DNA from: an uncultured archaeon
GTDB taxonomy: Archaea > Aenigmatarchaeota > Aenigmatarchaeia > GW2011-AR5
Direction: 5' to 3'
NCBI GenBank assembly: GCA_964373695.1
Contig: CAYJVT010000018.1
Span: forward strand, 1-15,596
Length of the DNA: 15,596 bases
A model generated the notes under the pieces. It saw only the letters and a list, made by a program, of their open reading frames with translations. It had not been told where the DNA came from and ran no database searches. Shown in pieces: positions 1 through 15,596 of the stretch (position 1 is the first letter of the stretch; each line of letters begins with the position of its first letter). The position numbers were made by a program, and so were the translations under genes.

Positions 1-396
1 AAAGCAGCAGCAGCAAAGCCGCTATCATGACCATAATTAGGACAACAAACTCATTTTTAATGAGACCGAGAACCCTCATCAGGACGCTTGCAATCAGGCT
101 TATGTACGATGCTGCGAGCGCAGCCTTTAATGCATCCATGTCTCGCCTGAGCATCCCAAGCAGCGATACTATAAAGATGACGGCGAGCAGCACGATGCCG
201 AAATAATTGTCTGTGGTTGTGTTCGCATACTGGAACAGCGCCGTATAGCTTGACGCATTGACTATTGGAAAGTCTGTAAACGGCATCAGATATCAACCCT
301 GTTAGCTAGTTTTATGACTTGGAAGACTATATCATTGCTCAAAAGCAGCAGCAGCAAAGCCGCTATCATGACCATAATTAGGACAACAAACTCATT
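1..396 (+). repeat. Terminal direct repeat, left copy (same as 15201-15596)
   Basis: 1-396 reads identically to 15201-15596; ORF 57..296 recurs at 15257..15496 (offset 15200). Confidence 0.95.
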
Positions 397-627
397 TTTA
401 ATGAGACCGAGAACCCTCATCAGGACGCTTGCAATCAGGCTTATGTACGATGCTGCGAGCGCAGCCTTTAATGCATCCATGTCTCGCCTGAGCATCCCAA
501 GCAGCGATACTATAAAGATGACGGCGAGCAGCACGATGCCGAAATAATTGTCTGTGGTTGTGTTCGCATACTGGAACAGCGCCGTATAGCTTGACGCATT
601 GACTATTGGAAAGTCTGTAAACGGCAT
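286..627 (-). CDS. Chimeric copy of the 99-aa 3-TM protein fused in frame to the last 15 aa of the 139-aa protein (probable artefact)
   Basis: Same as 15187..15486 up to LLLL; then W->L, stop lost, read-through into IVFQVIKLANRVDI. Confidence 0.35.
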   Translation of the reverse strand: MPFTDFPIVNASSYTALFQYANTTTDNYFGIVLLAVIFIVSLLGMLRRDMDALKAALAASYISLIASVLMRVLGLIKNEFVVLIMVMIAALLLLLLSNDIVFQVIKLANRVDI

Positions 628-1046
628 CAGATATCAACCCTGTTAGCTAGTTTTATGACTTGGAAGACTATAAACACGACGGCTATCACTGCGAGCATGG
701 TCGTGAACCAATCCGGTATGGGGATCGATGTAAACAGATCAGGCACGTTAAATATCAGATCTACCATGACTGTCGCGAAACCCAGCAGCAGGCCGCCTAT
801 CTGAAAGACGAACAAAGTTGCCAAATCAAAAATCGATGTTATGGTAAAGTTCTCCACAATGGATCTCAGCTTGACGTCTATCTCCTTGACCCTGCTGGCG
901 ATTGCGCCTGTATTGTTCAGCTCGGAGAAATCTGTTGTCGTGTTGGCCACGCCGTAGGTGCTGCTGACGTCTGCGTAGAAAAGAGCCATGCCTGTGATTA
1001 CGCTCGAGAAAACTATGACCCCCATTATCAAGCTTGATAGATTCAT
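627..1046 (-). CDS. 139-aa membrane protein, putative minor virion protein (start revised to MNLSSLIMG)
   Basis: ATG at 1046 overlaps the adhesin stop (ATGA); N-terminal, central and C-terminal hydrophobic segments; NTT, NNT and NFT sequons; TGATG coupling to the next gene. Confidence 0.85.
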   Translation of the reverse strand: MNLSSLIMGVIVFSSVITGMALFYADVSSTYGVANTTTDFSELNNTGAIASRVKEIDVKLRSIVENFTITSIFDLATLFVFQIGGLLLGFATVMVDLIFNVPDLFTSIPIPDWFTTMLAVIAVVFIVFQVIKLANRVDI

Positions 1047-4000
1047 TTTCTCAGTCTCCAGAGAATTATAAATCCTACCAGGACTATGCTTGCGGCCCCG
1101 ATCGCTCCGAGACTGATCAGCCCTAGAGCGGCGGATCCCAGCAGACCAACGATGGCCATGACTATGGCTATAAAGGGCGAGCGAAAGCCCATCGTTCCTG
1201 TGCACAAAACTATGAGCAGCGCCATTATGATGCCTTCGGTGCCAAGGATGCCAGCGACCAATGAAAGTTCAAGATATCTGTTGAGCAGGAAAACACGATT
1301 ATTTGTGTCTGTGTTGAGGATTGCATAGAGACGATAGTTGAATTTGCGGCCTTGCAGTTCAGACCAGCTGGCCCAAGTATAGCCTATTGTGACTGCTGAT
1401 CCGGATTGGCAGGTATCTGTTATGACGTCGTCTGAAAGAGTGCCTATCCTATAGATCGTGAGACACGCCTGCGTCATCAGGTTGGATGAGTCGGACACTG
1501 TGCATGAGAGTGTCAACGTTGCATTGCTGTAGCTGCAGGCAAAACCTATCTTGTCATAATACTGGAAATAGTCTATCGATGTCTGGGGGCTTATTGTCAG
1601 CGTGTTCGATGTTGTGAGAATCTTAATTGTGTCGGTCTCTTTGAGGATATTGGCGCCCCGGTCAAGAATGATTTTATAGAAACCGTCGAATTGGCGAGCC
1701 TGGACTGCGAGGTTGCCCAGATAATCGGACCTGCCTATTTCAACAGTTGCGAATGCGTTGGTTGACGGCGAGTACCTTAAGAGTTTGAGATATACGCCTT
1801 CCAATGGCGTTCCGCTTGAATCCTGGATTGTGTAGGATATCCTAGTTGCGTAGGTGCTGTTAAGCAGATAGAGATTCAATAACGTCGATGATGCATTTGT
1901 CGAAAGGCTGGTCAGGCTGGCATTGACAAGATAATAAGTCCTCAGCGGGCTGGATCCGGATAGAAATTCCAGGGTGGCGTTGGTCTGCACTGTGGCGTTG
2001 GCCGGCGACATGCAAAGGCTGTAGGACTGGGCATTTTCGTAATGGAAACTATAATTTCTGTTGACAGGCTGGGATATATTCCAGACTGTAAAGGTCGCGT
2101 CTATTGTAAAGTTCTCGGTCAGGTTTGCGAATCCTTCCTCGTTGCGGCCAATGAACGTTATGACCCTGTTGCTGGGCGTGCCGGATGTGCAGTTACCGAG
2201 AGTGATTCGTGTGATTGTGACTGTAGTGTCGGATGAATAGACGGTTCTGCGGTTGTCGCCAAAGTCTATGTAAAGCGTGGTATTGGCGAGGACTGGGCTA
2301 GTTGCGTTTTCGATCAGCGGCAGTATGGTGGAAAATCCAAAGAGTTCAGTGCTGGCGCCAAACACATAGCTTGTATTGCCTGTCCGGGTGCCGTTAAAGG
2401 TCCAGTTGCCGCGCAGTGTTGACGTGTTGAGGAACTTGCCTATCGTAGAATTGAATAAGAAACTCTGGCTTTCTGGCGGTGTCGTCGAGCTTACGGATGT
2501 GCTGCTTATGTAATAAGCATAGTTTATGGACTGGTTGCCGGCCGCAGTTGTCACATTGGTCAAGACGGTGCCGTTGGTGTAGGTCAGGTTATATGACCAG
2601 TACCATGACACGCCGGTATTGTTGACTTGCAAGAGGGGGGGCGTCACGTTTGCCCCGAATGTAAAATTATCGCTAGCCTGCGAGAATGACGTGTTTGCAT
2701 ACCTGGTATTATTCCAAAAGAACGCGGCGGTGGTCCTGTTGATGTTATCAGCGACTCTCACCGTGAGATTAAAAGCCGTCCTGTTGGTTTCATAGATCGG
2801 CGATGTGGATGCATTGGCTGTCACGTTTGAATGAATTATTGAAAAGAGTATGGTGCGTGTGTCTGTATTGCTGCTGCCGGCCGCGCCGCTGCAGCTGACA
2901 TTGAGATTGAAAGTGATGGGATCCAAGTTGTTCAAGATTGCAGTTGTGAACGTGTTATTTGTCGTGTTGCCCATTGATGTCGAGTTTCCAGCCGGGATGA
3001 CCCTGGTGCAATTATAGCTTGCGGACGAGCCTGTGACAGTAAAGTTCAGAGTTACGTTGCTCCTTAGGAATGTAGAGTTTATCGGATTTATTATAGTTAC
3101 GTTTGGCGCGGCGGCTGACGGTGTATTTAGCTCACTCGCTCTCTGAGTTATCAAAGTAAAATTCCGACTTAGAATTCCGGCGATAGTTGCATTAAGCTCG
3201 TCGTTTGTCATTGTCCTGTTAAGAACAATGTAAGCATCAACAAGACCGCTGAAAAGACCGCTGCCTGTGTGGTCAGATCCTATTCTCCAAGCATTATTAT
3301 TGCTTCCTATGGTTGTCAATGCCGTTGCCGTCCTTGCCCTCATAAATGTGCCGTTGGTGTCCCATAATAACGCTTCTATTTCCGACCCGCTGGTATGCCT
3401 GCAAACGCTGACCATCCACCTATTCTGCACGATACCCCTGACCGTGGCTATCTGGAATCCTGCGCCGGTATTGCCGAACACACAATTCAAGTCACCGTTG
3501 CCTTCCATGTACGCGCGGAATCCTAGGGGGTTGGCATCGCCTTTGCTGAAAAGGTTTGTTCCGAAACCGGTGGATCTGAACACGGTTATTATTGTCATGC
3601 CATTTGTGGCTGTGTCTCCGACTGATTCGTCATTTGCTTCGTAATAAGTAGAGCCGTCAAAAACACCAGCCTGTCCGTACAATCCAGCAGCTTGATTGGT
3701 TGTCCCTGCGGCATCCGCCCAGCTGCTTAGATATCTTGCGCTGTCGTTATAGTCGCCGGTATTTCTGTTGCTGAAATGCACTTCAGCCAAGATATCCGTC
3801 GGCCTTGTAGAATTCTTGAATGTAGGATCCAAAGTGTTGTTGACATGGTAGATGCTCTTGTTTGTGTTATTGGGGCTGTCATAGGCGCCATAGATCCAGG
3901 TGGTTGCAGATGCTCCGCGGCATCCAAATGTTGCATTTCCGTAGCCTTCCCAAATATAATTCTGTTCGACATTGCTTGCATTCAATATTAGATAATCTGT

Positions 4001-4219
4001 GCATCTTATATTCGGCGTCATGTTGTTGACAAGCGGAATGAAAACTCTGGGTGCATCGCCGCCTATTGAAAACATGGGGGCGTCAAAGTTGACTGTGTTG
4101 TTGGTCCTGTTATCATAGCTTGTATTGCCCCATGGAGCAATTGCAGCAGCCATTGAAAGGGAGAATCCTGCAAGAAATATTATGGCGGGAATTAAAGGCC
4201 ATGGCTTGATTGTTTTCAT
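1043..4219 (-). CDS. 1058-aa membrane-anchored adhesin/tail glycoprotein with LamG (concanavalin A-like) domain
   Basis: N-terminal signal-like hydrophobic stretch; aa ~143-345 has LamG_3 hallmarks (GLYGQAGVFDGS, RWMVSVCRH, WRIGSD, FSGLVDAYIVLNRTMT); beta-rich stalk; about 55 N-x-S/T sequons by hand count; 2-3 C-terminal TM helices ending WRLRK. Confidence 0.9.
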   Translation of the reverse strand: MKTIKPWPLIPAIIFLAGFSLSMAAAIAPWGNTSYDNRTNNTVNFDAPMFSIGGDAPRVFIPLVNNMTPNIRCTDYLILNASNVEQNYIWEGYGNATFGCRGASATTWIYGAYDSPNNTNKSIYHVNNTLDPTFKNSTRPTDILAEVHFSNRNTGDYNDSARYLSSWADAAGTTNQAAGLYGQAGVFDGSTYYEANDESVGDTATNGMTIITVFRSTGFGTNLFSKGDANPLGFRAYMEGNGDLNCVFGNTGAGFQIATVRGIVQNRWMVSVCRHTSGSEIEALLWDTNGTFMRARTATALTTIGSNNNAWRIGSDHTGSGLFSGLVDAYIVLNRTMTNDELNATIAGILSRNFTLITQRASELNTPSAAAPNVTIINPINSTFLRSNVTLNFTVTGSSASYNCTRVIPAGNSTSMGNTTNNTFTTAILNNLDPITFNLNVSCSGAAGSSNTDTRTILFSIIHSNVTANASTSPIYETNRTAFNLTVRVADNINRTTAAFFWNNTRYANTSFSQASDNFTFGANVTPPLLQVNNTGVSWYWSYNLTYTNGTVLTNVTTAAGNQSINYAYYISSTSVSSTTPPESQSFLFNSTIGKFLNTSTLRGNWTFNGTRTGNTSYVFGASTELFGFSTILPLIENATSPVLANTTLYIDFGDNRRTVYSSDTTVTITRITLGNCTSGTPSNRVITFIGRNEEGFANLTENFTIDATFTVWNISQPVNRNYSFHYENAQSYSLCMSPANATVQTNATLEFLSGSSPLRTYYLVNASLTSLSTNASSTLLNLYLLNSTYATRISYTIQDSSGTPLEGVYLKLLRYSPSTNAFATVEIGRSDYLGNLAVQARQFDGFYKIILDRGANILKETDTIKILTTSNTLTISPQTSIDYFQYYDKIGFACSYSNATLTLSCTVSDSSNLMTQACLTIYRIGTLSDDVITDTCQSGSAVTIGYTWASWSELQGRKFNYRLYAILNTDTNNRVFLLNRYLELSLVAGILGTEGIIMALLIVLCTGTMGFRSPFIAIVMAIVGLLGSAALGLISLGAIGAASIVLVGFIILWRLRK

Positions 4220-4223
4220 GTCA

Positions 4224-4706
4224 TCATTCCCTCGGCTTGGCGAACAATGCTATCAGCATGCCGGCTGCTGTGATCAGAACGTAGATAGGATAGCGCTGCA
4301 TCAAGAATGTTGTCATTGGCCAGCGGGCTTCTACGTTTGCCGGCGACATGCTCGGATCTGTCGCAAAGTCAACGAAAGCATTGGCCAAAGGCGGCGCGAG
4401 CGCAAAGAGAACTATGGCAATCATTATAGCTACAATGAAAAATATCGGGTCTGTCGGTATGAAATACGCAAGAGCTATCACGCCCAATGATGCTGCGACC
4501 ATGACAAATGCTAGCACCGAGTCGGCCGTCGTCATTGCTACGTTGGTGCTGACTATAATTCTGTCGGATGCGGTGCTGGTATCAACCGAGTCGAGCGCGT
4601 TTTCGAGAGAACTTGAGATGCTGAACCACACATTGCTGACAAGAGCCGTGCCTACGACTGCCGCGAAAATAAGAATAGTTATGATGATGGTGTCTGTGAT
4701 GGCCAT
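4224..4706 (-). CDS. 160-aa 4-TM protein, putative minor structural/morphogenesis protein (start revised to MAITDT)
   Basis: Four hydrophobic segments; between capsid genes and adhesin; track start 4715 is TTG, first ATG is 4706. Confidence 0.85.
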   Translation of the reverse strand: MAITDTIIITILIFAAVVGTALVSNVWFSISSSLENALDSVDTSTASDRIIVSTNVAMTTADSVLAFVMVAASLGVIALAYFIPTDPIFFIVAIMIAIVLFALAPPLANAFVDFATDPSMSPANVEARWPMTTFLMQRYPIYVLITAAGMLIALFAKPRE

Positions 4707-4709
4707 TCT

Positions 4710-4728
4710 ATCCAATAGAATATTGGAT
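4710..4728. promoter_or_regulatory. 8-bp inverted repeat ATCCAATA-gaa-TATTGGAT, candidate operator
   Basis: Perfect IR between TATA-like TTTTAAG (minus, 4736-4742) and the ATG at 4706. Confidence 0.45.
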
Positions 4729-4735
4729 TTGACGG

Positions 4736-4766: not shown

Positions 4767-4775
4767 TCAAATTGC

Positions 4776-5297
4776 TTAGAATCTTTTACGCAGCTGAAAG
4801 ACTACGAAGATTATTCCAAGAGCAGCTCCCAATCCTATGACCAGACCGATGAGGTCCAACTGCTGCGCGCCTTGGGATATTCCCTCGGTCGCGTTTGTAG
4901 CGACGTAATACGCCACTGTTCGTCTGCCTTCAACGTAGGTCACATTGTAGGTGCCAGATACCAATGTACCGCCAGCCGCTAGAAACGTCGTGTTGACGTG
5001 CGAAGCGTTGACAACTGTTAGATTACCGGTTAGGATAGTCATTGAATTGTTTCGTACGCTTGTAAGCGTATTAATCCTTCCGACCGGCCAGTCGGCAATC
5101 AGCCTTGTGGCGCTTGCATTTGTCAATGTCACAGACTGGTTGGTTATGGTGTTTGTGGCGCCATAGTCCAGCTGTGTTTCCAGATTGCCTGTGAGCTGTG
5201 CATTTAAGGATAGCACAAGTCCTGCAAGACCCAGGGCCACAAATGATGCGGCCAAGACTTGCAGGCCTGCCGATCCTTTAGCAGATTCTAAACCCAT
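4776..5297 (-). CDS. 173-aa capsid protein paralogue with ~82-aa sequon-rich insertion (VP3-like)
   Basis: Aligns to 5321..5617 in both helices (NATEGISQxAQQLDLIGLxIGLGAA); GGTGA SD 4 nt before ATG 5297 (track start 5300 is TTG); 8 sequons. Confidence 0.8.
   Translation of the reverse strand: MGLESAKGSAGLQVLAASFVALGLAGLVLSLNAQLTGNLETQLDYGATNTITNQSVTLTNASATRLIADWPVGRINTLTSVRNNSMTILTGNLTVVNASHVNTTFLAAGGTLVSGTYNVTYVEGRRTVAYYVATNATEGISQGAQQLDLIGLVIGLGAALGIIFVVFQLRKRF
4845..4865 (+). repeat. 21-bp exact repeat shared by the two capsid genes (copy at 5390-5410)
   Basis: accgatgaggtccaactgctg occurs at both positions. Confidence 0.9.
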
Positions 5298-5320
5298 CAA
5301 ATCACCTAGATTCGATGGAT

Positions 5321-5617
5321 TTAGAATCTTCCTCGGAATCTTAATGCCATGAAGATTACGCCGATTGCGGCACCCAATCCGATTATCAAACCGATGAGGT
5401 CCAACTGCTGGGCGGCCTGAGAGATACCTTCTGTTGCATTTGCAGCGACAGTGGCAGCGACTCCGGTCGTTCCAGTTTCGATGTTTCGGGTGACCGTTGC
5501 GATCACAGCACCTATTGCGCCTGCGATGCCTAGCATTAGAAAGGCACCTGGCAGCTCATTAAGCGCCACACCTTTGGATCTTCGGTTGAAAACCCTTTTG
5601 ATTAGACTAAAATCCAT
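5321..5617 (-). CDS. Putative major capsid protein, spindle-virus-type two-helix hairpin (98 aa, ~82 aa if leader is cleaved)
   Basis: Basic leader, two Gly/Ala-rich hydrophobic helices, short loop with NAT sequon, basic C-terminus RFRGRF; GAGGT SD; first gene of its unit with a paralogue in tandem. Confidence 0.75.
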   Translation of the reverse strand: MDFSLIKRVFNRRSKGVALNELPGAFLMLGIAGAIGAVIATVTRNIETGTTGVAATVAANATEGISQAAQQLDLIGLIIGLGAAIGVIFMALRFRGRF

Positions 5618-6041: not shown

Positions 6042-6380
6042 ATGGCTGCCGAAGAGGGAATCCTGCTTCTATGGTCTGTTATTCCTTTCTTTTTTCTATG
6101 GCTGTCTATGCTGATCAGCGCCAAGGAATGGTATTTCATACCGATGAAAATATTCTCTATCGCTATTGGCATGGCCATGGTGCTGAACGCCATGGGACTG
6201 GCCTTTGAGATTGCGCAGGCGAACTCTTATTCTGATGATGTGATCACGGCCATGAGCGGGCATGTAGCTAACTTTACCTGGATTCTTTGGGCTTTTGTAA
6301 TGTACGGATTTGTCCTGCTAATCATATATGTCTTCAATTACCTAGGCGGTCTGCTTAGCTGGAGAGGTCGCAAGAAATGA
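6042..6380 (+). CDS. 112-aa 3-TM membrane protein, unknown function
   Basis: Three hydrophobic segments, basic C-terminus; TATA-like TTTTTAAG 22 nt upstream suggests a leaderless mRNA. Confidence 0.85.
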   Translation: MAAEEGILLLWSVIPFFFLWLSMLISAKEWYFIPMKIFSIAIGMAMVLNAMGLAFEIAQANSYSDDVITAMSGHVANFTWILWAFVMYGFVLLIIYVFNYLGGLLSWRGRKK

Positions 6381-6538
6381 GCAGTCCGACCAGGCGCATA
6401 TCAAAAGAAATGGAGACTGAAATCAGAGCCATGCAGAAAGATCTCCAGCGGTGGGGCAGGCCAGACGCCAGCTTTGTAGAAGCCAGCAAAGAACTGGCGA
6501 TGCTGAACAAAAAAACAAAGGTAAGAGTAATCCTCTAG
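6377..6538 (+). CDS. 53-aa protein, possible ribbon-helix-helix regulator (not in ORF track)
   Basis: MSSPTRRISKEMETEIRAMQKDLQRWGRPDASFVEASKELAMLNKKTKVRVIL; ATGA overlap with upstream gene; strand-helix-helix pattern; RHH call is by eye. Confidence 0.65.
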   Translation: MSSPTRRISKEMETEIRAMQKDLQRWGRPDASFVEASKELAMLNKKTKVRVIL

Positions 6539-7530
6539 CGCTTTCTTTTCCTGGATTTCGATTTCTTATACCGGCGCTTTGGCTTGAGCCTGGCTCGCTT
6601 TGTCGGCTTGGCCATTTTCCTGTATTTTTCCATGAGTTCGCCGCGCTCTTTTATTCTCCTGAGTTTTATAATTCCTTTCTCATAGCCTTTGTGCTTGACC
6701 CTGGTATGGCCGCCCAAGTCCCTGAACACAGACCTGTCAGGAAATATGTTGAACTTGTTGATCCAATCTCTTACAGTGCTTTCGCCGACTTGGTGTATTT
6801 CCATGATGTCTTTTATCGTCAGCGAATCCGACAACTGCTTTTGCACTTTCTCGCGCTCCCTCTGGATCTTTGCAGATTCGCGGTTGCTTGAGAGGAACCT
6901 GTTCTTGCGTTTCTCATAGTCCATCCAGAACCTATTCTTGTTGGGTATGCGCTTCCAGAAACCTACAAAGTCTGCATCGGGATATTGAAAGTTGTTTGAT
7001 TCTGAATCATACCTTATCTTTTGCAGGGCACCGCTCCTGTCGCCGTACGCCCTGAACATGCCGCGCCGCTCGACCTTGAAAATCGCATTGACCCTGGTCT
7101 CGCCTATGCCCCTGAGCCATTTCTCCAAGAGCCCCAATGACGGCGCGCACAAAACTATAAAGTGATTCTTCTGCCTGATCTGCGCGAACTTGAGGACCAT
7201 CTTCTTTTGCTGCGTGCTCATGGCGCCCCTCGAATAGAATATTTCTTCGCCTTCGTCAAAGTCCAGCGCGCTCTTTGGCTTGAGCTTTCTCTCCATCATC
7301 CTGTAATCCATGGCCGTAAACATTATTTTCTCTGTTGAAAATTGCTCGTCAACATAGCTGCAGCACAACTGCGCGAGCTGGCTTTTCCCGTCTCCGACCT
7401 TGCCCACGATCAGAATCATATAGTCGTAATTCTTATTTAGCCTGTGCAGGATGACCGCATCCAGATTTCTTTTTGTTGTCTCATCAAGCCTTGACTTGAA
7501 ATCTGCGCGGATCTCGTTTGTTGTTCTCAT
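6535..7530 (-). CDS. P-loop ATPase (Zot/pI/spindle-virus morphogenesis type) fused to HTH_17/MerR-like domain and basic tail
   Basis: Walker A GKVGDGKS (aa 43-50), Walker B ALDFDE (88-93), Arg-finger-like FAQIRQK; LTIKDIMEIHQVGESTVRDWINK...RDLGGHTRV (237-278); K/R tail. Confidence 0.9.
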   Translation of the reverse strand: MRTTNEIRADFKSRLDETTKRNLDAVILHRLNKNYDYMILIVGKVGDGKSQLAQLCCSYVDEQFSTEKIMFTAMDYRMMERKLKPKSALDFDEGEEIFYSRGAMSTQQKKMVLKFAQIRQKNHFIVLCAPSLGLLEKWLRGIGETRVNAIFKVERRGMFRAYGDRSGALQKIRYDSESNNFQYPDADFVGFWKRIPNKNRFWMDYEKRKNRFLSSNRESAKIQREREKVQKQLSDSLTIKDIMEIHQVGESTVRDWINKFNIFPDRSVFRDLGGHTRVKHKGYEKGIIKLRRIKERGELMEKYRKMAKPTKRARLKPKRRYKKSKSRKRKR

Positions 7531-7536
7531 CGCATA

Positions 7537-7713: not shown

Positions 7714-7714
7714 A

Positions 7715-8161
7715 TCAAGCCAACTGCCTACCTTCAGGAAATACAGACAGCCTTTCGATGCTGTAGATGCCCAGCCTTTTCAGGACGCCTGTCAGAACTT
7801 TGTAGCTTTGATAGAGATAAGAAAGCTTTAGCAGCTTTGCAGTTTCAGCAGGTATCATTGCGTCCAAGTCCGCCAATGATTTCTCTTCTTTGTCGTTGAG
7901 CTTCTCTCTGATGCTCATGTAAAACTTTATGGTGACTGACTGGATCATAACCTCGGCTCCTGCCTTGTCTGCCGTATAGCCTGGTCTTCGCGTGTTGCGC
8001 GAGTCTGTTATGGCCCGATAAATTGACCATGCGTTTTCCAGTTGATTTTGCTGTTCAAGCCAGCGCTGCTTTAGCAGCAGGGGCTCCGAGTATGCTAGTT
8101 TTTGCACAGCTTCCGGATCCATATCATTCTCAATGACTCTAGTTCTCTTCCCTGCCATCAT
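7715..8161 (-). CDS. 148-aa helical hypothetical protein (start revised to MMAGKR)
   Basis: Track start 8179 is TTG; ATG at 8161/8158 lies ~20-25 nt downstream of TATA-like TTTAAG (8181-8186); first gene of the ATPase unit. Confidence 0.85.
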   Translation of the reverse strand: MMAGKRTRVIENDMDPEAVQKLAYSEPLLLKQRWLEQQNQLENAWSIYRAITDSRNTRRPGYTADKAGAEVMIQSVTIKFYMSIREKLNDKEEKSLADLDAMIPAETAKLLKLSYLYQSYKVLTGVLKRLGIYSIERLSVFPEGRQLA

Positions 8162-8272
8162 AGATAAATAGCTGTCCAAACTTAAATGCTCCGAGGGTGC
8201 CGCCCCTTCCGAGCCTTTTGCACCACTTACCTAGTTTGGGGATATTTATACTATAAGAACCTAATGATTGTT
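8162..8272. promoter_or_regulatory. Divergent archaeal promoters
   Basis: TTTAAG on minus at 8181-8186 and TTTATA on plus at 8245-8250, each ~20-25 nt before an ATG. Confidence 0.6.
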
Positions 8273-8815
8273 ATGCCGGATGAAAATTACCGAGATTACA
8301 ATCAGCAACAGCCGTTGATCGGATCTTACATGTCGCCTGGTCTTCATCCAAGCACAACCGCATTGGAGCTCACCAATACAGATATTATACAGGACTTTAT
8401 GCACGCGCTGAAAGGCGAGAGATGGGATGAGGTTAACAGCAAGTATGAACAAATAGGTGAGGAGCTTGTCAACAAGACAGGCCGCGCCAAGTTGATGACT
8501 GTAATGCTGGCGGTTACAAACAGAAATATAATTCTTTCAGATCTTGACGAGGACGATATCGATTTGCAATCCAATGCAATAGGCCAGGCGATGATAACAT
8601 GGTTGGAAAACAATTATGAGGAATGGGGCATCGACGAGTCTGGGCTTGAAACTATATACCAGATTATTGATGTCAATATCTACGCCGCGCTGAGACGCAG
8701 CCTTGGCGGCCAGACACTCGCGCAGATAGCGCAGATGACAAAAAGAATCGAGGGGCGAGAGGGCGTCAAGCAGGACAAGCCTAGTTTCTTGGACCGGCTA
8801 AATCCTTTCAAGTGA
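8273..8815 (+). CDS. 180-aa soluble acidic helical hypothetical protein (start revised to MPDENY)
   Basis: TTTATA at 8245-8250 favours a leaderless start at 8273 (8264 also possible); 4-nt gap to next gene. Confidence 0.85.
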   Translation: MPDENYRDYNQQQPLIGSYMSPGLHPSTTALELTNTDIIQDFMHALKGERWDEVNSKYEQIGEELVNKTGRAKLMTVMLAVTNRNIILSDLDEDDIDLQSNAIGQAMITWLENNYEEWGIDESGLETIYQIIDVNIYAALRRSLGGQTLAQIAQMTKRIEGREGVKQDKPSFLDRLNPFK

Positions 8816-8819
8816 TGTT

Positions 8820-9434
8820 ATGGGAATTATAAAATTACTTGACATGGCATTAGGACGCTACAAATACAGGGTGCAGATATTCAAGCCCAGGGGCGGCGGC
8901 AAGTTCCAGGTCATAGCATTTGACAAGGCCATGAAAATAGACAAGCTCGGCACAGTCAAATACCGGATGTACAAACACGACAAGGTTGTTGCCGCATCAA
9001 AGCCTATACAGACGTCTGTCGATGAGAACGGACGAGATCTGCTTATTCTGACCCAATTGAGCGATGACACTTTTGCGCCTGTGACTTTTAAGCTGGACCA
9101 GGAATCCAAAGGAATACTTGAGAGTGACGGCGCCGAGTCTGCCAAGTTCTGGTCAAGCCAAGAGAGACGCAGAACTCAAGAGAGGTATGGCAAGCAGTCG
9201 GCCCTTGAAAGATACGGCCCCATTATCGGACTGATGTTCATTGCAATTATTCTCGCATTTGTCGCCGTCTATGGATTCAATACATGGAACAAGCTTGCTG
9301 ATGCGAATCTGCAAATAACCAGCGAATATGCAAAGATCACTCTGCAGCTTGGAGAGATCATCGCAAGGCAGGGTGGCGCAGTACAATCAGCGCAGCCAGT
9401 CCTAGGAACGCCCGCCGGACCTATTGGCCAGTAG
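8820..9434 (+). CDS. 204-aa single-pass membrane protein, unknown function
   Basis: Basic beta-rich N-terminal region, TM PIIGLMFIAIILAFVAVYGF, amphipathic tail. Confidence 0.85.
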   Translation: MGIIKLLDMALGRYKYRVQIFKPRGGGKFQVIAFDKAMKIDKLGTVKYRMYKHDKVVAASKPIQTSVDENGRDLLILTQLSDDTFAPVTFKLDQESKGILESDGAESAKFWSSQERRRTQERYGKQSALERYGPIIGLMFIAIILAFVAVYGFNTWNKLADANLQITSEYAKITLQLGEIIARQGGAVQSAQPVLGTPAGPIGQ

Positions 9435-9560: not shown

Positions 9561-9564
9561 CCCA

Positions 9565-9753: not shown

Positions 9754-9764
9754 TTTCTAAACCC

Positions 9765-9905
9765 CTAAGCTTTCAATTTCCCTAAGCTTTTGTGTCCCCG
9801 TTTCTTCATAGTCATATTTCTCTGAATGTGACCGCCTATGGCGGAATTGCTTGCAAAGCTCCTTCCGCACTTGCAGCCATACCTGTTTGCCTGGATTCTT
9901 CTCAT
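9765..9905 (-). CDS. 46-aa C2H2-like zinc-finger protein (not in ORF track)
   Basis: MRRIQANRYGCKCGRSFASNSAIGGHIQRNMTMKKRGHKSLGKLKA; GGTGA SD at 9910-9914. Confidence 0.75.
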   Translation of the reverse strand: MRRIQANRYGCKCGRSFASNSAIGGHIQRNMTMKKRGHKSLGKLKA

Positions 9906-9924
9906 CTAATCACCTAATCATATT

Positions 9925-9975
9925 TGGGCTAGCCCACATATAAAACTATCACGTTTTGTGGTATTTATATTCTTT
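9925..9975 (-). promoter_or_regulatory. Promoter of Zn-finger operon with 12-bp palindrome TGGGCTAGCCCA
   Basis: Minus strand GAAAGAA-TATAAATA (TATA 9962-9969, purine-rich BRE), second TTTTATAT (9939-9946), palindrome 9925-9936. Confidence 0.55.
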
Positions 9976-10012
9976 CAAATTAAGCCTGGCCAATCAAGGG
10001 GATGCCAGCCAA

Positions 10013-10207
10013 TCAACTAACATTTTTAGTAGTATGTTTCGAATAGCCTTCCCATGTTTCGAGGGTTGCTACGATTTTCTTGATATGCCTTGAATCTATG
10101 CTGTCTAATTCGGATTTGTTCTTTGTAAGGATGTCTGCGATCAGCGCCAAGCCTTCTTTGAACAGCTTGATTTTATTCTCTCTGCTTAGCGTCTGCGGGG
10201 ATGTCAT
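10013..10207 (-). CDS. 64-aa soluble helical hypothetical protein
   Basis: ATGA overlap with upstream gene; GGAGA SD; last gene of the Rep-candidate operon. Confidence 0.75.
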   Translation of the reverse strand: MTSPQTLSRENKIKLFKEGLALIADILTKNKSELDSIDSRHIKKIVATLETWEGYSKHTTKNVS

Positions 10208-10398
10208 ACCTGTCTCCAGCGCTTTTTTTCTTGTTTAACCACAAAGCTCTTCAATTCCCTGATCTTTTCAGCCAGCTTCAAATCAATATTCTTTTCCATT
10301 TTGTCTATAATGTACTTCTGGGAGATATACTGGCCTATTACAACCCCAAAGCCAGTAAACAATCCAGTAAGTATTATTGTTATTGGATCAATCGTCAT
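10204..10398 (-). CDS. 64-aa single-TM protein with charged coiled-coil tail (start MTIDPI; 10416 is an alternative)
   Basis: GGGAG SD before ATG 10398; TM ITIILTGLFTGFGVVIG. Confidence 0.75.
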   Translation of the reverse strand: MTIDPITIILTGLFTGFGVVIGQYISQKYIIDKMEKNIDLKLAEKIRELKSFVVKQEKKRWRQV

Positions 10399-10434
10399 TA
10401 CTCCCAACCTTTGCATCGCTGGATTTATTCTGCT

Positions 10435-10653
10435 TCATTGCTTCGCCTTCTTTCTTTTCTTCGGCTTTATAAATTTGTCCAAGGTCTCTTGTGTCATTGG
10501 GTCCACCGGGTTATGCTTCTGCTTTTTCCTTCTAGTTAACCTTTCTTCCAGAATCTTATTAACCTTTCGCAGGACGGTCCAAGTGACCAGGATGGAGACT
10601 ATCTCTGCAATAATCAGCAGGGACATGAACCAGAACAGAATTTCTATAGCCAT
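10435..10653 (-). CDS. 72-aa single-TM protein with basic tail (start revised to MAIEIL)
   Basis: TGATG overlap with upstream stop; N-terminal TM; KPKKRKKAKQ tail. Confidence 0.75.
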   Translation of the reverse strand: MAIEILFWFMSLLIIAEIVSILVTWTVLRKVNKILEERLTRRKKQKHNPVDPMTQETLDKFIKPKKRKKAKQ

Positions 10654-10796
10654 CAGAACGCCGGTCTCCTGCTTTTGTACCAAACCATGAAAATAAACGC
10701 GGCCACAATTCCTAGGATATATACTGCGTTCTCTCCCTGCAAAGCGTTCCACGGCACTGCATTTTTCAGGTAATCCAGGATAGTCACGCTAATCAT
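10653..10796 (-). CDS. 47-aa single-TM microprotein (start revised to MISVTI)
   Basis: GGGAGA upstream; overlaps upstream gene end; TM AVYILGIVAAFIFMVWY followed by KSRR. Confidence 0.7.
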   Translation of the reverse strand: MISVTILDYLKNAVPWNALQGENAVYILGIVAAFIFMVWYKSRRPAF

Positions 10797-10983
10797 TCTC
10801 CCTTGTGTAAAGCCTGTGCAGCCAAAGGATGGACAATATCGCAAAGATTATCAACAGGCCGCCAGTCCATAGCTGCGCTGCCGGGGCCCAGCTTTTGATG
10901 GCAACCATTATAAAGTCCAGATTGATGTTGCTGGTTGGAATGTCCTTGATAAAGTCAAGACCGCCAGGATCCAGGATAGCCAT
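10789..10983 (-). CDS. 64-aa protein with C-terminal TM
   Basis: TM LWTGGLLIIFAILSILWL; starts 3 nt after the upstream stop. Confidence 0.75.
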   Translation of the reverse strand: MAILDPGGLDFIKDIPTSNINLDFIMVAIKSWAPAAQLWTGGLLIIFAILSILWLHRLYTREND

Positions 10984-10986
10984 GCG

Positions 10987-11181
10987 TTAACGACCTTCAA
11001 CAATCAAGGTTTTATTTAAAAGCTCGGTGACTGTCAGATTGATTTCACCGTCTGTTATTATCCTGTCTGAAAGCAGGGCCTTGTATGCAGCCGCCATCTC
11101 ATGGTATTCCAGATAGGTCATCAACAGCAAGACGCATGTAAATACTATGCCTGACATGATCAGCCAAAGGGGCCAGTTCAT
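10987..11181 (-). CDS. 64-aa protein with N-terminal TM (start revised to MNWPLW)
   Basis: ATGA overlap with the 458-aa gene stop; AGGTGG SD; TM WPLWLIMSGIVFTCVLLLMTY. Confidence 0.75.
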   Translation of the reverse strand: MNWPLWLIMSGIVFTCVLLLMTYLEYHEMAAAYKALLSDRIITDGEINLTVTELLNKTLIVEGR

Positions 11182-12554
11182 TGCAGCCACCTATAGATGC
11201 TATCGTCGTATGCGGGCCTTTCTGGCCGCTTTTCTGTTCTTGCAGCTGCCGCGCCTACAGGGGTTATGTGGCCTTTCGCAGTGTCAAAGATAATTTTGCC
11301 GGTGTTTTTCAGATAGACCAGAGCATGGCGGATGGTCTTGGGTGTCATGCGCCTGAACCTTTTCTGGACGTGAGTGTAAAGAGTTGATACATAGACTGGG
11401 CCATTCATCTTTCTGTGCAAATCAACGATCATATCCAAGACATCGTCATTGTCGGCCGCTGATGCCGGCCTGGACACTGGCCGCTGCACCGGCTGCTGAA
11501 CAAATGGCTGGACTTGCTTTGGCGGCTCTATCGGGGGTGCAGGCTGCGTTCCACGCAATGTCTGGCGCATTTCTGCCACGCCAGATGTGAGATCTTCTGT
11601 CGCCTTTTTCAATCCCTGGATGGCCGACATGTGCAGGCTCATCTGTTGCGTATAGTCTTGCAGCACCTTCATTGATCCGCCAAGTATCCTGGTGTTTTCC
11701 GCCTGCATGTCAAATAAATCATCTATACGCTCCGGCATCATAATCAGCTTTTCCGCATATCTCAGATCGTTTGTTTCCATTTCCACTACTCCATGACTGC
11801 GGTCTATCCATGCCTTTGCTGCTATAGGGCTATCTTCCCTGGTTCTCATTGGACCGAGTATTGATTCAGCCTGCCTTCCAAGGGACATAGTTACCTTTGT
11901 TTTTGGATCTACTTTGTCGTCATATTCAGGCGCATCATTCCCTATCTCCTGGCTGATTACTTCTTCATCACCGACTTCAATATTGTGGTTCTGCAACCAG
12001 AGACGCCCATAGATCAGGATCTTTGCCGTAAACTGCGCCAATGCTGTAAAGAATGTTCTGTCCCTTGGCAGGTGCTTCTGATGCACGTGAAATATTATGC
12101 TCTTTGTAGTTCGTTCGATTCTGATCTCGTGCGGCCATTCAAGGCTTACGTATTTCCTAAACCATCTGTTAAATCCGTCCGGCTTGATGCTGTCCCATTG
12201 CACTGTGTCCGGTCTTTCCGGATGCAGCAAGGGAAACTTGATCTGAAAATGCTCCACTCTGGATAAAGTTCTTGCTGCACTCAGACGTAGTGATGCTCGG
12301 TTGACTTCTTCACGTCCGTGCAAAGTCGGGATCCATATCTTCGGGTATTTCTGATCGGACTGAATAACCCATCCGGCCCTTTCCATTGCCTTTAACGCCT
12401 TGGATACGCTTTGTTTCGATATGCCGTCTCTTGCCAGGATGTTATTGATTTCAGCCTGGGTCAGCTTTTCCAGCACCAAAACAAACACTTTCCTACGTAA
12501 AGTCAACCTTCTGATGTCCACTGAGTTGACTTTGTTTATTTCTTCGATCGGCAT
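11178..12554 (-). CDS. 458-aa multidomain DNA-binding protein, candidate replication initiator: wHTH - unknown core - coiled coil - Pro/Gln linker - wHTH
   Basis: N-terminal wHTH (LTQAEINNIL...ISKQSVSKALKAMERAGWV); C-terminal wHTH aa 369-433; only large soluble non-ATPase ORF. CDS is secure, Rep role is inference. Confidence 0.8.
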   Translation of the reverse strand: MPIEEINKVNSVDIRRLTLRRKVFVLVLEKLTQAEINNILARDGISKQSVSKALKAMERAGWVIQSDQKYPKIWIPTLHGREEVNRASLRLSAARTLSRVEHFQIKFPLLHPERPDTVQWDSIKPDGFNRWFRKYVSLEWPHEIRIERTTKSIIFHVHQKHLPRDRTFFTALAQFTAKILIYGRLWLQNHNIEVGDEEVISQEIGNDAPEYDDKVDPKTKVTMSLGRQAESILGPMRTREDSPIAAKAWIDRSHGVVEMETNDLRYAEKLIMMPERIDDLFDMQAENTRILGGSMKVLQDYTQQMSLHMSAIQGLKKATEDLTSGVAEMRQTLRGTQPAPPIEPPKQVQPFVQQPVQRPVSRPASAADNDDVLDMIVDLHRKMNGPVYVSTLYTHVQKRFRRMTPKTIRHALVYLKNTGKIIFDTAKGHITPVGAAAARTEKRPERPAYDDSIYRWLQ

Positions 12555-12663: not shown

Positions 12664-12679
12664 AAAGTATATATACTTT
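12664..12679. promoter_or_regulatory. 16-bp perfect palindrome AAAGTATATATACTTT, candidate bidirectional TATA box
   Basis: Self-complementary; between divergent genes; TATA core ~23 nt before ATG 12699. Confidence 0.65.
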
Positions 12680-12698
12680 ATAGGTTATAATTAGTTCT

Positions 12699-13031
12699 AT
12701 GTGGCTAAAGGACATGTTCAGAAAGGATCTGCCTTTGCTGTTCATGCTGACACTATGGATAGTGTCGCCAGGGATTGCGGCGCTGGAGACGTGGATGTGG
12801 TATAACGTGCCTGTTTTCAACACTATAGCATCGCCTGAGATCCATGTGGAACCTGGCTGGCTCCAGACTTTCTATGTGTTTCTGATCCAGAATTCTTTCG
12901 AACTCTTTCTATATTCCACCGGCTTGCTGTGGGCGAGATTCTACTATAGGCCGTCATCGCCTTCGGCGCCTTGGCATAATAAGAGGTCTGACACCAAGTC
13001 CCGACAGACGCCCCGTGGGCGCTCTCCTTAA
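12699..13031 (+). CDS. 110-aa two-TM membrane protein
   Basis: Two aromatic-rich hydrophobic segments; TATA at leaderless spacing; tail overlaps the convergent 746-aa gene by 78 nt. Confidence 0.75.
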   Translation: MWLKDMFRKDLPLLFMLTLWIVSPGIAALETWMWYNVPVFNTIASPEIHVEPGWLQTFYVFLIQNSFELFLYSTGLLWARFYYRPSSPSAPWHNKRSDTKSRQTPRGRSP

Positions 13032-15194
13032 AGGCCTTTCGAGACCGATTGTTCCACCGTAGCTTGGGACGTATTTTGTCAATCTGTCAAGGCTAAGCTT
13101 GGATTTTCCCGCTCCTTTTCCAAAGCCGAATGACGGCATCTTGAATGCAAAGCCCCCGGCCCCTGCAGCTCTAGCAGGCGCCATTCTTGGCGCTCTCAAG
13201 CTGATGCTCTGAATCTGCCTGAATAAAGGCCTTTGCCTTGGCGCAATTCTTTGCCTGAGTCCGCTGGCCTGCCTTTGCGCGCGCATAGGCCGCAATCCGA
13301 CAGCCTGATCAAATCCGCGCCCGATATCTGAAAATAGGCTCTGACCCCTTTTTGACAGGATCCCTAATGTAGGCGCGGATGACAATGCAGCGCGGTTCGA
13401 TCGCAGCGACAGTCTTGGACTTGACAAAGCATATTGCCTTCTTGCCGCTCTCGGTGTCCTTAGAAACTCTGCCGGCGGGGCTATAGCAACTTCTTTGGCT
13501 TTGCCTGCGCCGCCGATCCTTGGCACGCCTAACAAAGACGGTCCGGTCTTGCGAGACAATGATGGCGGAGCTGATACAGCAGCTAATTGCCGCGCGACCG
13601 GTTCAAGCTTTAGGCCGCCCGTTTTCTGGCGCGTGAATGTCCGCATGCTTGTTTTTCCAATGCTATCAAAACCTTTCAACTTCTCGAAACCGATAAAAGA
13701 TACCTTGCCGCCGAGCATGCCTTTGCCTTTTGGCAGGGTTTGAGAACGTCCAAAAAGAGCGAATGTCGCAGTCTTTATCCTGGCTGGATATGTTATCTTT
13801 TCTCCCATTGAGCCTTTGAAACTCACGCGTCCTGGCCTTGAGATAAATACCGCCTGCTTGGACAAAAGCTGTTCTACGCCAAGTTGCGTTCTTGACGCAG
13901 TAATCAGCTTTGTTTTTGATGGTTGGAATGAGACACTGTCGCCTTTGAAAGACAGGGACTTTGATAAGGAGATGCCAGATGTGACGGCGCCTTTTGTGGA
14001 CATTGTGTCGGTGAATCCTATGCCGACTGATCTGGTGCGCTGCGTAGATGAGATTTCAAATTCCTTGGGCGCGGCTCTGACGGCCGTTCTTGCCAGCGTT
14101 ATCGACTGGGGTTTGAAACCGCCCAGTGTGGCCCTGCTGACAGTCCTTCCGATTGTGAAAGCAGATACCCGTCCTTTCGGCAATACAATAGCTTCGCCTG
14201 ATACAGCTGTGATGGTTCCCATGGATCTTGTAGCTGTCAGCCGTCCTGCAAGTTTTCCGGTCCCTACAATCAAGGCGGCCGCCCCCGCGACTGTTGCGAC
14301 TGCTTCGAACGGCCTTTCCCTAAACAGCTTTACGGTCTGCTGCTTGGCAGATTCCAATTTGAATTTAGCTGGATCGATTCCTGCTTTGACAGTCTGAAAG
14401 AACTTTCTAGGGCCTTCCTTTATGAGGGCTCCGCCATAGACGGCGCCATAGACATAGGGCGTCTCTACAGCGCCCAGCGTAAACTCACGGCCCATAGTCC
14501 CCACGCGCTTTAGCGCGCCAATCGCCTGGTTATCGCCCGGCTTTATATCCAAGAAACTTGTTTTCTGCCGGACAAATTTAAACGATTTGCCAAAGGCTGA
14601 TTCCTCAAATCTTCCGAAAGCGCTGCCTAGTCTTAGCTGGGATTCGGTCGGTTCAGGGCCGGCGGCCTGCCTTTGCTGCTCGGCCAACAGATAGATGTCC
14701 AGCGGCCTTTCGTCCGGCAAAGGCTTGTATGATGGCGATTCGTATTTGCCGACAAGACTGGCTGCTGATTTTGCGCCTTCGCGGTCCACATAATAAAAGG
14801 ACTTTTCCCTGTCTGCGGCCTGCCTTTCACGCTCGCTGATCATGCCGAGCCTTGCCGCAATGCCCGGAGATACCGGGACCTGGCCGCCCCTTATCATCCT
14901 TTCAGATTCTTTCGCCTGCTCTTTCTGAGACTCTTCGAATCTCCTATCCAGCTCTTCTTGCGACAGCGCACGGCCAGTCGATAAAGTTTCTGTGGTTCTT
15001 TCGCTGAACGGCGTGGACGAACCCGAAAGCCGCTCGCCCCTTGATGCCGCCCTTTCAAAAAGCTCTCTGACACCCGGCGACACTGTTTCCCGGCCGGATA
15101 TGATATCGGCCACTCTCTCGGGCTCGTATGCGCCTATGGGTTCGCCCGAGGGCTTTCTGACAATTATCAGATCTCCGCTTGCCATCTTAATCAT
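12954..15194 (-). CDS. 746-aa low-complexity polybasic protein, candidate internal virion/DNA-delivery protein
   Basis: Long ORF coupled to the structural operon; central hydrophobic FEAVATVAGAAALIVGTG; K/R-rich C-terminal half ending RRRRR; start 15194 or 15185. Confidence 0.85.
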   Translation of the reverse strand: MIKMASGDLIIVRKPSGEPIGAYEPERVADIISGRETVSPGVRELFERAASRGERLSGSSTPFSERTTETLSTGRALSQEELDRRFEESQKEQAKESERMIRGGQVPVSPGIAARLGMISERERQAADREKSFYYVDREGAKSAASLVGKYESPSYKPLPDERPLDIYLLAEQQRQAAGPEPTESQLRLGSAFGRFEESAFGKSFKFVRQKTSFLDIKPGDNQAIGALKRVGTMGREFTLGAVETPYVYGAVYGGALIKEGPRKFFQTVKAGIDPAKFKLESAKQQTVKLFRERPFEAVATVAGAAALIVGTGKLAGRLTATRSMGTITAVSGEAIVLPKGRVSAFTIGRTVSRATLGGFKPQSITLARTAVRAAPKEFEISSTQRTRSVGIGFTDTMSTKGAVTSGISLSKSLSFKGDSVSFQPSKTKLITASRTQLGVEQLLSKQAVFISRPGRVSFKGSMGEKITYPARIKTATFALFGRSQTLPKGKGMLGGKVSFIGFEKLKGFDSIGKTSMRTFTRQKTGGLKLEPVARQLAAVSAPPSLSRKTGPSLLGVPRIGGAGKAKEVAIAPPAEFLRTPRAARRQYALSSPRLSLRSNRAALSSAPTLGILSKRGQSLFSDIGRGFDQAVGLRPMRAQRQASGLRQRIAPRQRPLFRQIQSISLRAPRMAPARAAGAGGFAFKMPSFGFGKGAGKSKLSLDRLTKYVPSYGGTIGLERPLRRAPTGRLSGLGVRPLIMPRRRRR

Positions 15195-15486
15195 TGCTCC
15201 AAAGCAGCAGCAGCAAAGCCGCTATCATGACCATAATTAGGACAACAAACTCATTTTTAATGAGACCGAGAACCCTCATCAGGACGCTTGCAATCAGGCT
15301 TATGTACGATGCTGCGAGCGCAGCCTTTAATGCATCCATGTCTCGCCTGAGCATCCCAAGCAGCGATACTATAAAGATGACGGCGAGCAGCACGATGCCG
15401 AAATAATTGTCTGTGGTTGTGTTCGCATACTGGAACAGCGCCGTATAGCTTGACGCATTGACTATTGGAAAGTCTGTAAACGGCAT
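15187..15486 (-). CDS. 99-aa 3-TM protein, putative minor virion protein (intact copy)
   Basis: Three hydrophobic segments; N-terminal NAS and NTT sequons; TGATG coupling upstream. Confidence 0.85.
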   Translation of the reverse strand: MPFTDFPIVNASSYTALFQYANTTTDNYFGIVLLAVIFIVSLLGMLRRDMDALKAALAASYISLIASVLMRVLGLIKNEFVVLIMVMIAALLLLLWSND

Positions 15487-15596
15487 CAGATATCAACCCT
15501 GTTAGCTAGTTTTATGACTTGGAAGACTATATCATTGCTCAAAAGCAGCAGCAGCAAAGCCGCTATCATGACCATAATTAGGACAACAAACTCATT
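15201..15596 (+). repeat. Terminal direct repeat, right copy
   Basis: Matches 1-396; the last 55 bp (15542-15596) also equal 1-55. Confidence 0.95.

Follow-up and report, generated by a model that had tools for sequence, protein, structure and literature searches.

A probable spindle-shaped-type virus of an Aenigmatarchaeota archaeon encoded on a 15.6-kb contig

A foreign, self-contained element binned with an archaeal genome

The window analysed here is the entire contig CAYJVT010000018.1 (contig C18; 15,596 nucleotides (nt), read on the forward strand), which was binned in a metagenome-assembled genome (MAG) of an uncultured archaeon of the phylum Aenigmatarchaeota (GCA_964373695.1, here G000), and it is probably the genome of an episomal, integrase-less virus of the spindle-shaped type that infects a member of this DPANN phylum. 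The MAG amounts to 1.02 Mb in 60 contigs with an estimated completeness of 91%, and its small-subunit rRNA gene, which is interrupted by insertions, scores 505 bits with the archaeal model versus 293 bits with the bacterial model. The guanine-cytosine (GC) content of the window, 47.9%, lies inside the range of the MAG. Among contigs of at least 10 kb, the window exhibits the lowest tetranucleotide correlation with the rest of the MAG (0.64, with the others at 0.76-0.98), and no paralogues of its genes were found elsewhere in the MAG; the contig is therefore a foreign, self-contained element.

Approximately 26 open reading frames (ORFs) occupy 92% of a 15,541-bp circular map and are arranged in four strand blocks (Table 1), in agreement with the tight packing of about 25 genes reported in a preliminary description of this DNA. 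A long minus-strand block containing g98, g174, g163, g1058, g192, three repeat genes and g746 is unbroken across the junction of the contig ends. No tRNA was found in the window, and Rfam gave no match. The archaeal promoter and Shine-Dalgarno signals of the preliminary description were recognised by eye for a subset of genes: TATA-like TTTAAAAA or TTTTTAAG boxes lie 23-31 nt 5' of g98, g112 and g163, and Shine-Dalgarno-like GAGGT or AGGTGA lies 6-14 nt 5' of g98, g174 and g46. The same description called the element minimal, yet its size is ordinary when set beside SSV1 (15.5 kb), His1 (14.5 kb) and WyrdV1 (15.6 kb).

Table 1. Features of the window, in order of position (aa, amino acids; TM, transmembrane; MCP, major capsid protein)
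Feature	Coordinates	Strand	Assignment	Basis or remark
Two repeat units	1..672	-	Three-TM protein of 113 aa in each unit	First 94 aa of g99, then the g192 tail
g192	627..1046	-	Membrane protein of the structural block	Likely 139 aa, start MNLSS
g1058	1043..4219	-	Spike or adhesin	Two genes downstream of the MCP pair
g163	4224..4715	-	Four-TM membrane protein of the conserved structural block	TM prediction
g174	4776..5300	-	Larger MCP paralogue, two TM helices	TM prediction
g98	5321..5617	-	Candidate MCP, 98 aa	TM prediction; paralogy with g174; upstream TATA-like box and GAGGT Shine-Dalgarno
g112	6042..6380	+	Small three-TM protein between the ATPase and MCP operons	ORF; TM prediction; gene-called in Logan contig L008
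g154, g58, g331	6535..8158	-	ATPase operon	AAA+ ATPase profile matches
g209, g204	8264..9434	+	Divergent from the ATPase operon	
g67, g64b, g105, g70, g64a, g46	9765..11190	-	Small-protein operon	ORFs; TM prediction
g458	11178..12554	-	Candidate replication initiator	HMMER relatives; AF2 model; Foldseek; conservation
Perfect 16-nt AT-rich palindrome AAAGTATATATACTTT	12664..12679	.	Candidate promoter or origin element	Located 110 nt upstream of g458, within ~400 nt lacking a convincing gene
g746	12954..15194	-	Large basic orphan, low-complexity	128 K+R versus 59 D+E
First repeat unit	15187..15596	-	Holds g99 (15187-15486) and the 55-nt terminal overlap	

The ATPase, capsid candidates and spike of the structural module

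The published hallmarks of spindle-shaped viruses are an AAA+ ATPase, an adhesin and an MCP of ~80 aa that has two hydrophobic segments and occurs as one or two paralogues (10.1101/2021.07.29.453957; 10.1101/2025.02.15.638363). Judged from the predicted proteins, this signature module is present in the window as an ATPase of the B251/ORF16 family, a pair of two-helix paralogues and a LamG spike encoded next to the candidate MCP genes.

The P-loop ATPase noted in the preliminary description is g331, which possesses a Walker A motif (GKVGDGKS, aa 43-50), a Walker B motif (DFDEGEE, aa 90-96) and a C-terminal helix-turn-helix (HTH) at ~aa 224-278 (HTH_23 and HTH_17 matches) followed by a basic tail, and which lacks a TM helix. 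A profile of the g331 family aligned with ORF16 of His1, likewise an ATPase with a C-terminal HTH, at an hhalign probability of 96% (E 2.5e-9) across 122 columns spanning Walker A and B. In addition, g331 matches phrog_5484 at 1.4e-6 over positions 10-235 of 239, and given that SSV1 B251 (5e-101) and His1 ORF16 (3e-62) both match this profile, it represents the spindle-virus ATPase family. The Pfam Zot match to g331 falls just below the cut-off (E 6.7e-4). ATPases of wyrdviruses are reported to be most similar to inovirus pI, without its TM domain (10.1101/2021.07.29.453957), and so the Zot match is no argument against a spindle-type ATPase; for the same reason, the premise of the preliminary description that a grouping with inovirus enzymes would speak against the spindle lineage is not valid. 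Among 5.8 billion proteins, g331 has eight relatives only (48-66% identity, all on short contigs), and when 371 genomes of the phylum were searched with a profile, the family was recovered in nine, G000 and eight others, all of the same class. The ATPase and g98 found no tblastn match among 50,697 records of phages and archaeal viruses, and a PDB profile search with the ATPase alignment (A1) returned P-loop noise only. Homologues of the operon gene g154 lie upstream of the ATPase at two further loci (L009 and L025).

The paired helix-hairpin capsid-like genes described previously correspond to g98 and g174, each with two predicted TM helices. The hydrophobic helices of g98 are predicted at aa 22-43 and 71-94, with one NAT sequon between them, while g174 possesses N- and C-terminal helices like those of g98 together with an inserted domain of ~80 aa carrying eight N-glycosylation sequons. 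The two proteins share ~45 C-terminal aa, including an NATEGIS sequon (alignment A2), and the corresponding DNA repeat (D3) is 73% identical. A single homologue of g98 was found (P0011, 79% identical), along with a weak match (E 0.001) to the unannotated phrog_24719. By architecture and context, g98 and g174 are candidate MCPs.

The putative spike, g1058, possesses an N-terminal signal or TM segment, 56 NxS/T sequons and three C-terminal TM helices. The LamG adhesin of the preliminary description was recovered in this protein as a Laminin_G_3 domain (PF13385) at aa 188-342 (nt 3194-3658), scoring 30.4 bits (E 5e-7) where the Pfam cut-off is 27.6; this match was obtained by scanning residues 130-400 alone, as the full-length scan missed the domain, and an Atlas lead agrees with it.

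The same block could also be read as that of a pleomorphic, pleolipovirus-like vesicle virus, in which the small membrane proteins would be the matrix and g1058 a fusogenic spike. The small multi-TM block, the C-terminally anchored spike, the further membrane proteins and the NTPase do resemble the pleolipovirus core VP3-VP4-ORF6/7-VP8, and no sequence similarity links g98 and g174 to the MCPs of spindle viruses. However, hhalign found no similarity of g331 to HRPV-1 VP8 (0.2%) or of g98 to HRPV-1 VP3 (0.2%), both being single-sequence templates of limited sensitivity, whereas g331 is clearly similar to His1 ORF16 and phrog_5484, and a two-helix protein of ~100 aa accompanied by a paralogue is the pattern of spindle viruses. 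A pleolipovirus-like identity is considered unlikely.

Related elements and the probable host

A syntenic counterpart of the window is a 19.1-kb virus-like contig with 32% GC from another genome of the same class (L031, G128:C21), which contains homologues of g163 (7190-7663, E 3e-7), g1058 (4095-7193, E 3e-55), g192 (3648-4055) and g99 in the order of the window. These are followed by a 98-aa two-helix protein, and the contig also encodes a homologue of g209 that adjoins the ATPase (E 2.6e-6), the ATPase itself (phrog_5484 at 1.4e-8) and a tyrosine integrase (13648-14271). ORFs leave both ends of this contig and no terminal overlap is present. Its replication module is unlike that of the window, with an ORF running off the 3' end that carries a Walker A motif. 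A 446-aa ORF of the contig (15818-17158) is full of ETHxxxASH-type repeats.

A second relative is an element of 8.6 kb in a further genome of the class (L025 10263-18876; G100:C2, ~88.3-96.9 kb), which is integrated at tRNA-Arg(TCG) and bounded by the 15-nt direct repeat TCCCTTCGGGGCCAC. It encodes a tyrosine integrase, a DUF5677 protein, a 575-aa zinc-ribbon protein, a three-TM protein, a spindle-type ATPase 32% identical to g331 and a homologue 63% identical to g64a, and it contains neither an MCP nor a spike. This element is a candidate satellite or plasmid form of the virus group to which the window belongs. A metagenome scan found nothing beyond an already known JGI contig.

The existence of such ATPase-only relatives raises the question of whether the window is itself a plasmid or satellite that carries a spindle-virus ATPase and membrane proteins and forms no virion of its own, comparable to pSSVx and the SRCE elements; forms with an ATPase, an MCP or both have been described (10.1101/2025.02.15.638363). 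The published satellites measure 2.7-9 kb (10.1101/2025.02.15.638363), however, whereas the window holds 15.5 kb with a full structural block, in which two MCP-like genes are accompanied by a spike of 1058 aa and four additional membrane proteins, and this block is syntenic in the independent 19-kb contig. A satellite without its own virion is thus improbable, and a virus genome remains the preferred reading.

The preliminary description gave the host as unknown, and this can now be narrowed to the Aenigmatarchaeota through the binning of the contig in an Aenigmatarchaeota MAG, the syntenic contig in G128 and the integrated element in G100. The host is most likely an Aenigmatarchaeota archaeon, an assignment supported by the presence of relatives in two other genomes of the class. 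The MAG also contains a clustered regularly interspaced short palindromic repeats (CRISPR) array (G000:C11 8246-8282 and 11917-12247) with a 37-nt repeat, CTTGCACGACATCTCACACCAATCTGAGATATGGAAC, and four spacers.

Contig ends, tandem repeat and circularity

The first 55 nt of the contig are exactly identical to the last 55 nt (15542-15596 = 1-55), which supports the circularity claimed in the preliminary description, but the overlap falls within a 341-nt tandem repeat array (15190-15541 joined to 1-672), so that the copy number and the exact length are provisional. The 3.0 units of the array differ at one position only, which reads C at 15200 and A at 341 and 15541. The g99 copy, which adjoins g746, encodes 99 aa ending in ...LLWSND, whereas the other two copies encode hybrids of 113 aa whose last 14 residues duplicate the C-terminus of the upstream gene g192. 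An exact look-up of the hybrid protein found no record. The homologue of g99 in L031 is present as one copy of 99 aa ending in ...WLWKND, suggesting that the single copy is ancestral and the triplication recent. The repeat has the appearance of a small membrane-protein gene that was amplified in tandem very recently, and such a freshly triplicated gene would be a modest illustration of how viral genomes amplify genes.

Two independent Logan contigs (L007 and L008, from runs ERR4904391 and ERR4904390) are 100% identical to window positions 15230-1354 and 11892-643; coming from either unique flank, they reach 30 nt (k-1) into the repeat and stop there, with breaks at 15230 and 643. As stops of this kind reflect a de Bruijn graph with both repeat-to-repeat and repeat-to-unique paths, at least two tandem units are real in the reads. 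The genome is likely to be a circular map of ~15.5 kb, uncertain in length by multiples of 341 nt and composed of ~14.9 kb of unique sequence with two to three repeat units.

It may be argued instead that the contig is not closed, being either part of an integrated or larger element or the product of an assembly error that loops through the 341-nt repeat, given that both ends lie in the repeat, the 55-nt overlap is a typical k-mer length and the hybrid 113-aa product is without record elsewhere. However, the Logan contigs of the two runs give 14.6 kb at 100% identity with k-1 stops on both sides and no alternative exits seen, co-directional overlapping genes cross the junction from g192 through the g113 copies and g99 to g746, and the contig contains no att site, tRNA or host gene while its gene set forms a coherent whole virus. 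An open or mis-assembled contig is accordingly held to be quite unlikely.

Lack of an integrase and a candidate replication initiator

No match to an integrase (PF00589), a family B DNA polymerase of the protein-primed type (pPolB, PF03175), Rep_trans (PF02486) or DUF7845 (PF25227) was obtained in ORF scans or six-frame searches. As no integrase or Rep match occurs in any frame and no tRNA is present, the element is, on the evidence of its sequence, not recognisably integrative. Tyrosine integrase matches do occur elsewhere in the MAG (G000:C21 180-596 and G000:C5 37492-37785); the first of these contigs (13.8 kb, 44% GC, tetranucleotide correlation 0.79) may be another mobile element. The preliminary description held that neither a replication nor an integration enzyme was recognisable and that the element relies on host replication. 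The statement on integration stands, whereas the statements on replication are doubtful or overstated, because g458 belongs to a family with a predicted TATA-binding protein (TBP)-like core and a conserved tyrosine in a YxxK context and is a credible initiator of the element's own.

In a word-based search g458 is an orphan, but an exhaustive HMMER search recovered 147 relatives, 89 of them below 1e-10. Typical members of the family are ~320 aa long and align to residues 20-335 of g458, and Pfam detects only their N-terminal winged helix-turn-helix (wHTH). Named relatives come from MAGs of Zestosphaera, Nanopusillaceae and Methanomethylicaceae, and one family gene lies on a 28-kb contig (L036) with a DNA methylase gene. 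Full-length members occur in ~4 of the 371 genomes of the phylum, a rarity expected of a mobile-element gene. No terminal overlap was found in any of the small contigs with g458 relatives, which removes an argument from the family as the only gene carried by small plasmids. In two unrelated metagenomic elements (L035 9986-11633 and L055 388-2523), the gene immediately after the g458-family member encodes a short tyrosine integrase of 194-199 aa, which suggests a conserved replication-plus-integration cassette.

From the N- to the C-terminal side, g458 is predicted to consist of a wHTH (~aa 20-86), a TBP-like core rich in beta structure (aa 97-271), a long helix and another wHTH (aa 365-432). 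An AlphaFold (AF2) model with a mean predicted local distance difference test (pLDDT) score of 83, exceeding 90 over most of the core, resolves the core into two beta-sheet-plus-helix halves and the long helix into 60 residues. In Foldseek searches of the PDB, the best matches other than wHTH domains were TBPs (probability 0.97-0.98, E ~2e-3, TM-score ~0.4). In BFVD, an uncultured archaeal virus supplied the top match, a protein that is uncharacterised (E 4e-8), and further matches were giant-virus TBPs, including a Dishui lake phycodnavirus protein, followed by an Inoviridae protein. It was on such a Foldseek pattern that Wang et al. based the connection of RepSNJ2 (Rep-Arvir, DUF7845) with the Rep_trans endonucleases (PMC13107129). 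The best-conserved block of the family is AKAWIDxSxGxxExETNDLxYEEK, within which D263 is conserved in 60 of 60 sequences, E260 and D251 in 58 each and Y266 in 54, N262 is near-invariant, and W249, S253 and K269 are also conserved. K269 completes a YxxK motif like motif III of Rep_trans.

The likeness to Rep_trans and Rep-Arvir comprises a predicted TBP-like beta-sheet core combined with a wHTH, a conserved tyrosine in a YxxK context with conserved acidic residues nearby, a Foldseek pattern as for RepSNJ2, and carriage of the family by viruses and integrative elements. The differences are the lack of a Pfam match, a reversed domain order in which the wHTH comes first in g458, and the low structural score. 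On the basis of the model and the family alignment, g458 is probably the virus's own replication initiator, and the chance that it is a tyrosine nicking enzyme is about even. It may otherwise be a pure DNA-binding regulator. A wide VIA-align search with g458 returned rows filled by wHTH domains, an Atlas shape search returned unnamed clusters, and hhalign of the family alignment (A4) against PAV1 ORF528 matched the wHTH only. The further proposal that g458 represents a third, unnamed family of Rep_trans-like (TBP-fold, tyrosine) initiators with an N-terminal wHTH, distributed among mobile elements of Aenigmatarchaeota, Nanoarchaeota, Thermoproteota and methanogen-related archaea, is tentative and somewhat doubtful. 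If it is true, the virus would be a rolling-circle, non-integrating spindle virus of a DPANN host, and no virus lineage would have been described for Aenigmatarchaeota before it. For many small archaeal viruses and integrative elements, the g458 family offers a testable candidate for how replication starts.

Comparison with known archaeal viruses

Among the known families, Halspiviridae (His1) shares with the window, besides the ORF16-type ATPase matching phrog_5484, a capsid-type protein that is small and has two TM helices, a large glycoprotein that is anchored, numerous small zinc-finger and TM proteins and a genome of ~15 kb. His1 differs in its linear genome, which has inverted terminal repeats, and in its family B polymerase of the protein-primed type, whereas the window has a circular map with directly overlapping, not inverted, ends and no PF03175 match on the contig; His1 also has a single MCP, VP21, without similarity to g98, and a halophilic host. 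Wyrdviridae, which are spindle-type viruses of Asgard archaea (WyrdV1, 15.6 kb), resemble the window in size, in having one or two MCP paralogues and an adhesin, in a TM-less AAA+ ATPase resembling inovirus pI/Zot and in multiple zinc-finger proteins (10.1101/2021.07.29.453957). They differ in host phylum, and the likeness is drawn from the published description; replication modules vary among wyrdvirus relatives (10.1101/2021.07.29.453957).

The nanohaloarchaeal viruses DNSV-1 and DNSV-2 likewise have a DPANN host and possess an AAA+ ATPase together with a pair of MCPs that are paralogues (10.1101/2025.02.15.638363). Compared by description, they are larger (21-22 kb) and encode a tyrosine integrase (10.1101/2025.02.15.638363), whereas the window encodes none and its probable host is a non-halophilic member of the Aenigmatarchaeota. 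PAV1 and TPV1 of Thermococcales share LamG/ConA-like surface proteins with the window, and PAV1 is a circular episome without an integrase whose replication protein ORF528 (Rep-Arvir) was long annotated merely as a wHTH regulator (PMC13107129). In contrast, g1058 has no similarity to PAV1 ORF676, the g458 family matches ORF528 in the wHTH only, the PAV1 record annotates no ATPase, and the hosts of PAV1 are hyperthermophiles. The window is thus closest to wyrdviruses and His1 in size and layout, to the DNSVs in host type, and to PAV1 in lifestyle, being circular, without an integrase, with LamG proteins and with a Rep behind a wHTH annotation.

Only the ATPase PHROG, and none of the core genes, is shared with Fuselloviridae, from which the window also differs by the lack of a PF00589 match in any frame, and proteins of the VP8 or VP3 type of Pleolipoviridae were not found with the single-sequence templates of limited sensitivity. 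Given that the defining features of Fuselloviridae, Halspiviridae and Pleolipoviridae are absent, the element would be a separate family-level lineage. Most likely, the element is a new lineage within a kind of virus that is already known.

Assessment of the virus reading and proposed mechanism

The divergent, non-integrating spindle-lineage element of the preliminary description is borne out by an ATPase tied to His1 ORF16 and SSV1 B251, the hairpin pair, the LamG domain and the lack of an integrase. Several observations weigh against this interpretation. No virion has been seen; g98 and g174 have no detectable similarity to His1 VP21, SSV1 VP3 or the MCP-like protein of L031, and they are assigned to the capsid by their size, hydrophobic pattern, paralogy and context. 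SSV1 B251 by itself aligns with g331 over the P-loop only, and the AlphaFold model of g331 was poor (pLDDT 52) and was not used. As the end overlap sits in a repeat, the apparent closure might be an artefact of assembly. For g458, residues H101, T145 and D193 are conserved in the family but different in g458 itself, no Pfam Rep_trans or DUF7845 match was obtained by hmmscan of the core at E values up to 10 or in six frames, and the Foldseek match to TBPs reaches only E ~1e-3. With regard to the host, the binning of a small contig can be wrong, and the CRISPR spacer comparison proposed in the preliminary description, run on the four spacers of the MAG, gave no match to the window or to related loci.

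Under the spindle-shaped-virus interpretation, the hydrophobic hairpins of g98 and g174 would insert in the host membrane and form the capsid lattice, and the glycosylated LamG spike g1058 together with g163, g192 and g99/g113 would supply the terminal and envelope-associated parts. The ATPase g331, as a His1/SSV1-type AAA+ enzyme with an HTH, would drive DNA loading and assembly at the membrane, and virus would be released by budding without lysis, in a presumed chronic lifestyle. Replication would be started by g458 through its wHTH and TBP fold, perhaps by Rep_trans-like nicking via Tyr266, and would then be taken over by the host replisome. The element may also depend on its host for glycosylation and proteolysis, as the preliminary description proposed.

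No published virus of Aenigmatarchaeota was found in the literature, and Nanohaloarchaeota is the only DPANN group with described spindle viruses (10.1101/2025.02.15.638363). With related elements in two further genomes of the class, a complete genome such as this would offer a handle on the viruses of ultra-small symbionts and add weight to the view that spindle viruses are ancient and archaea-wide. Scans of IMG/VR with the ATPase alone and with alignment A1 found no relatives, an absence which shows that automated virus catalogues miss such viruses.

Remaining genes of the window

Of the gene pair divergent from the ATPase operon, g209 is likely 183 aa long, acidic and soluble, and g204 has one TM helix and a homologue at a further locus (L033, E 1e-5). 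Most proteins of the small-protein operon possess a single TM helix, and g46 of this operon is a C2H2-type zinc finger according to a weak C2H2 match. The large basic protein g746 gave no match in Pfam, PHROGs, NCBIfam or Atlas and has no similarity to a 940-aa protein of L031; it is possibly a virion or DNA-associated protein. In the gap between g746 and g458, a plus-strand ORF of 110 aa with hydrophobic stretches (12699-13031) overlaps the end of g746 and is a doubtful gene. At positions 9402-9753, two small minus-strand ORFs overlap a plus-strand ORF of 78 aa that has a non-coding look, and the gene callers of the Logan contigs called none of the three. One of the minus-strand ORFs encodes 52 aa with two TM helices, and the other encodes 62 aa with a TM helix and a C-terminal CxxC...CxxC.

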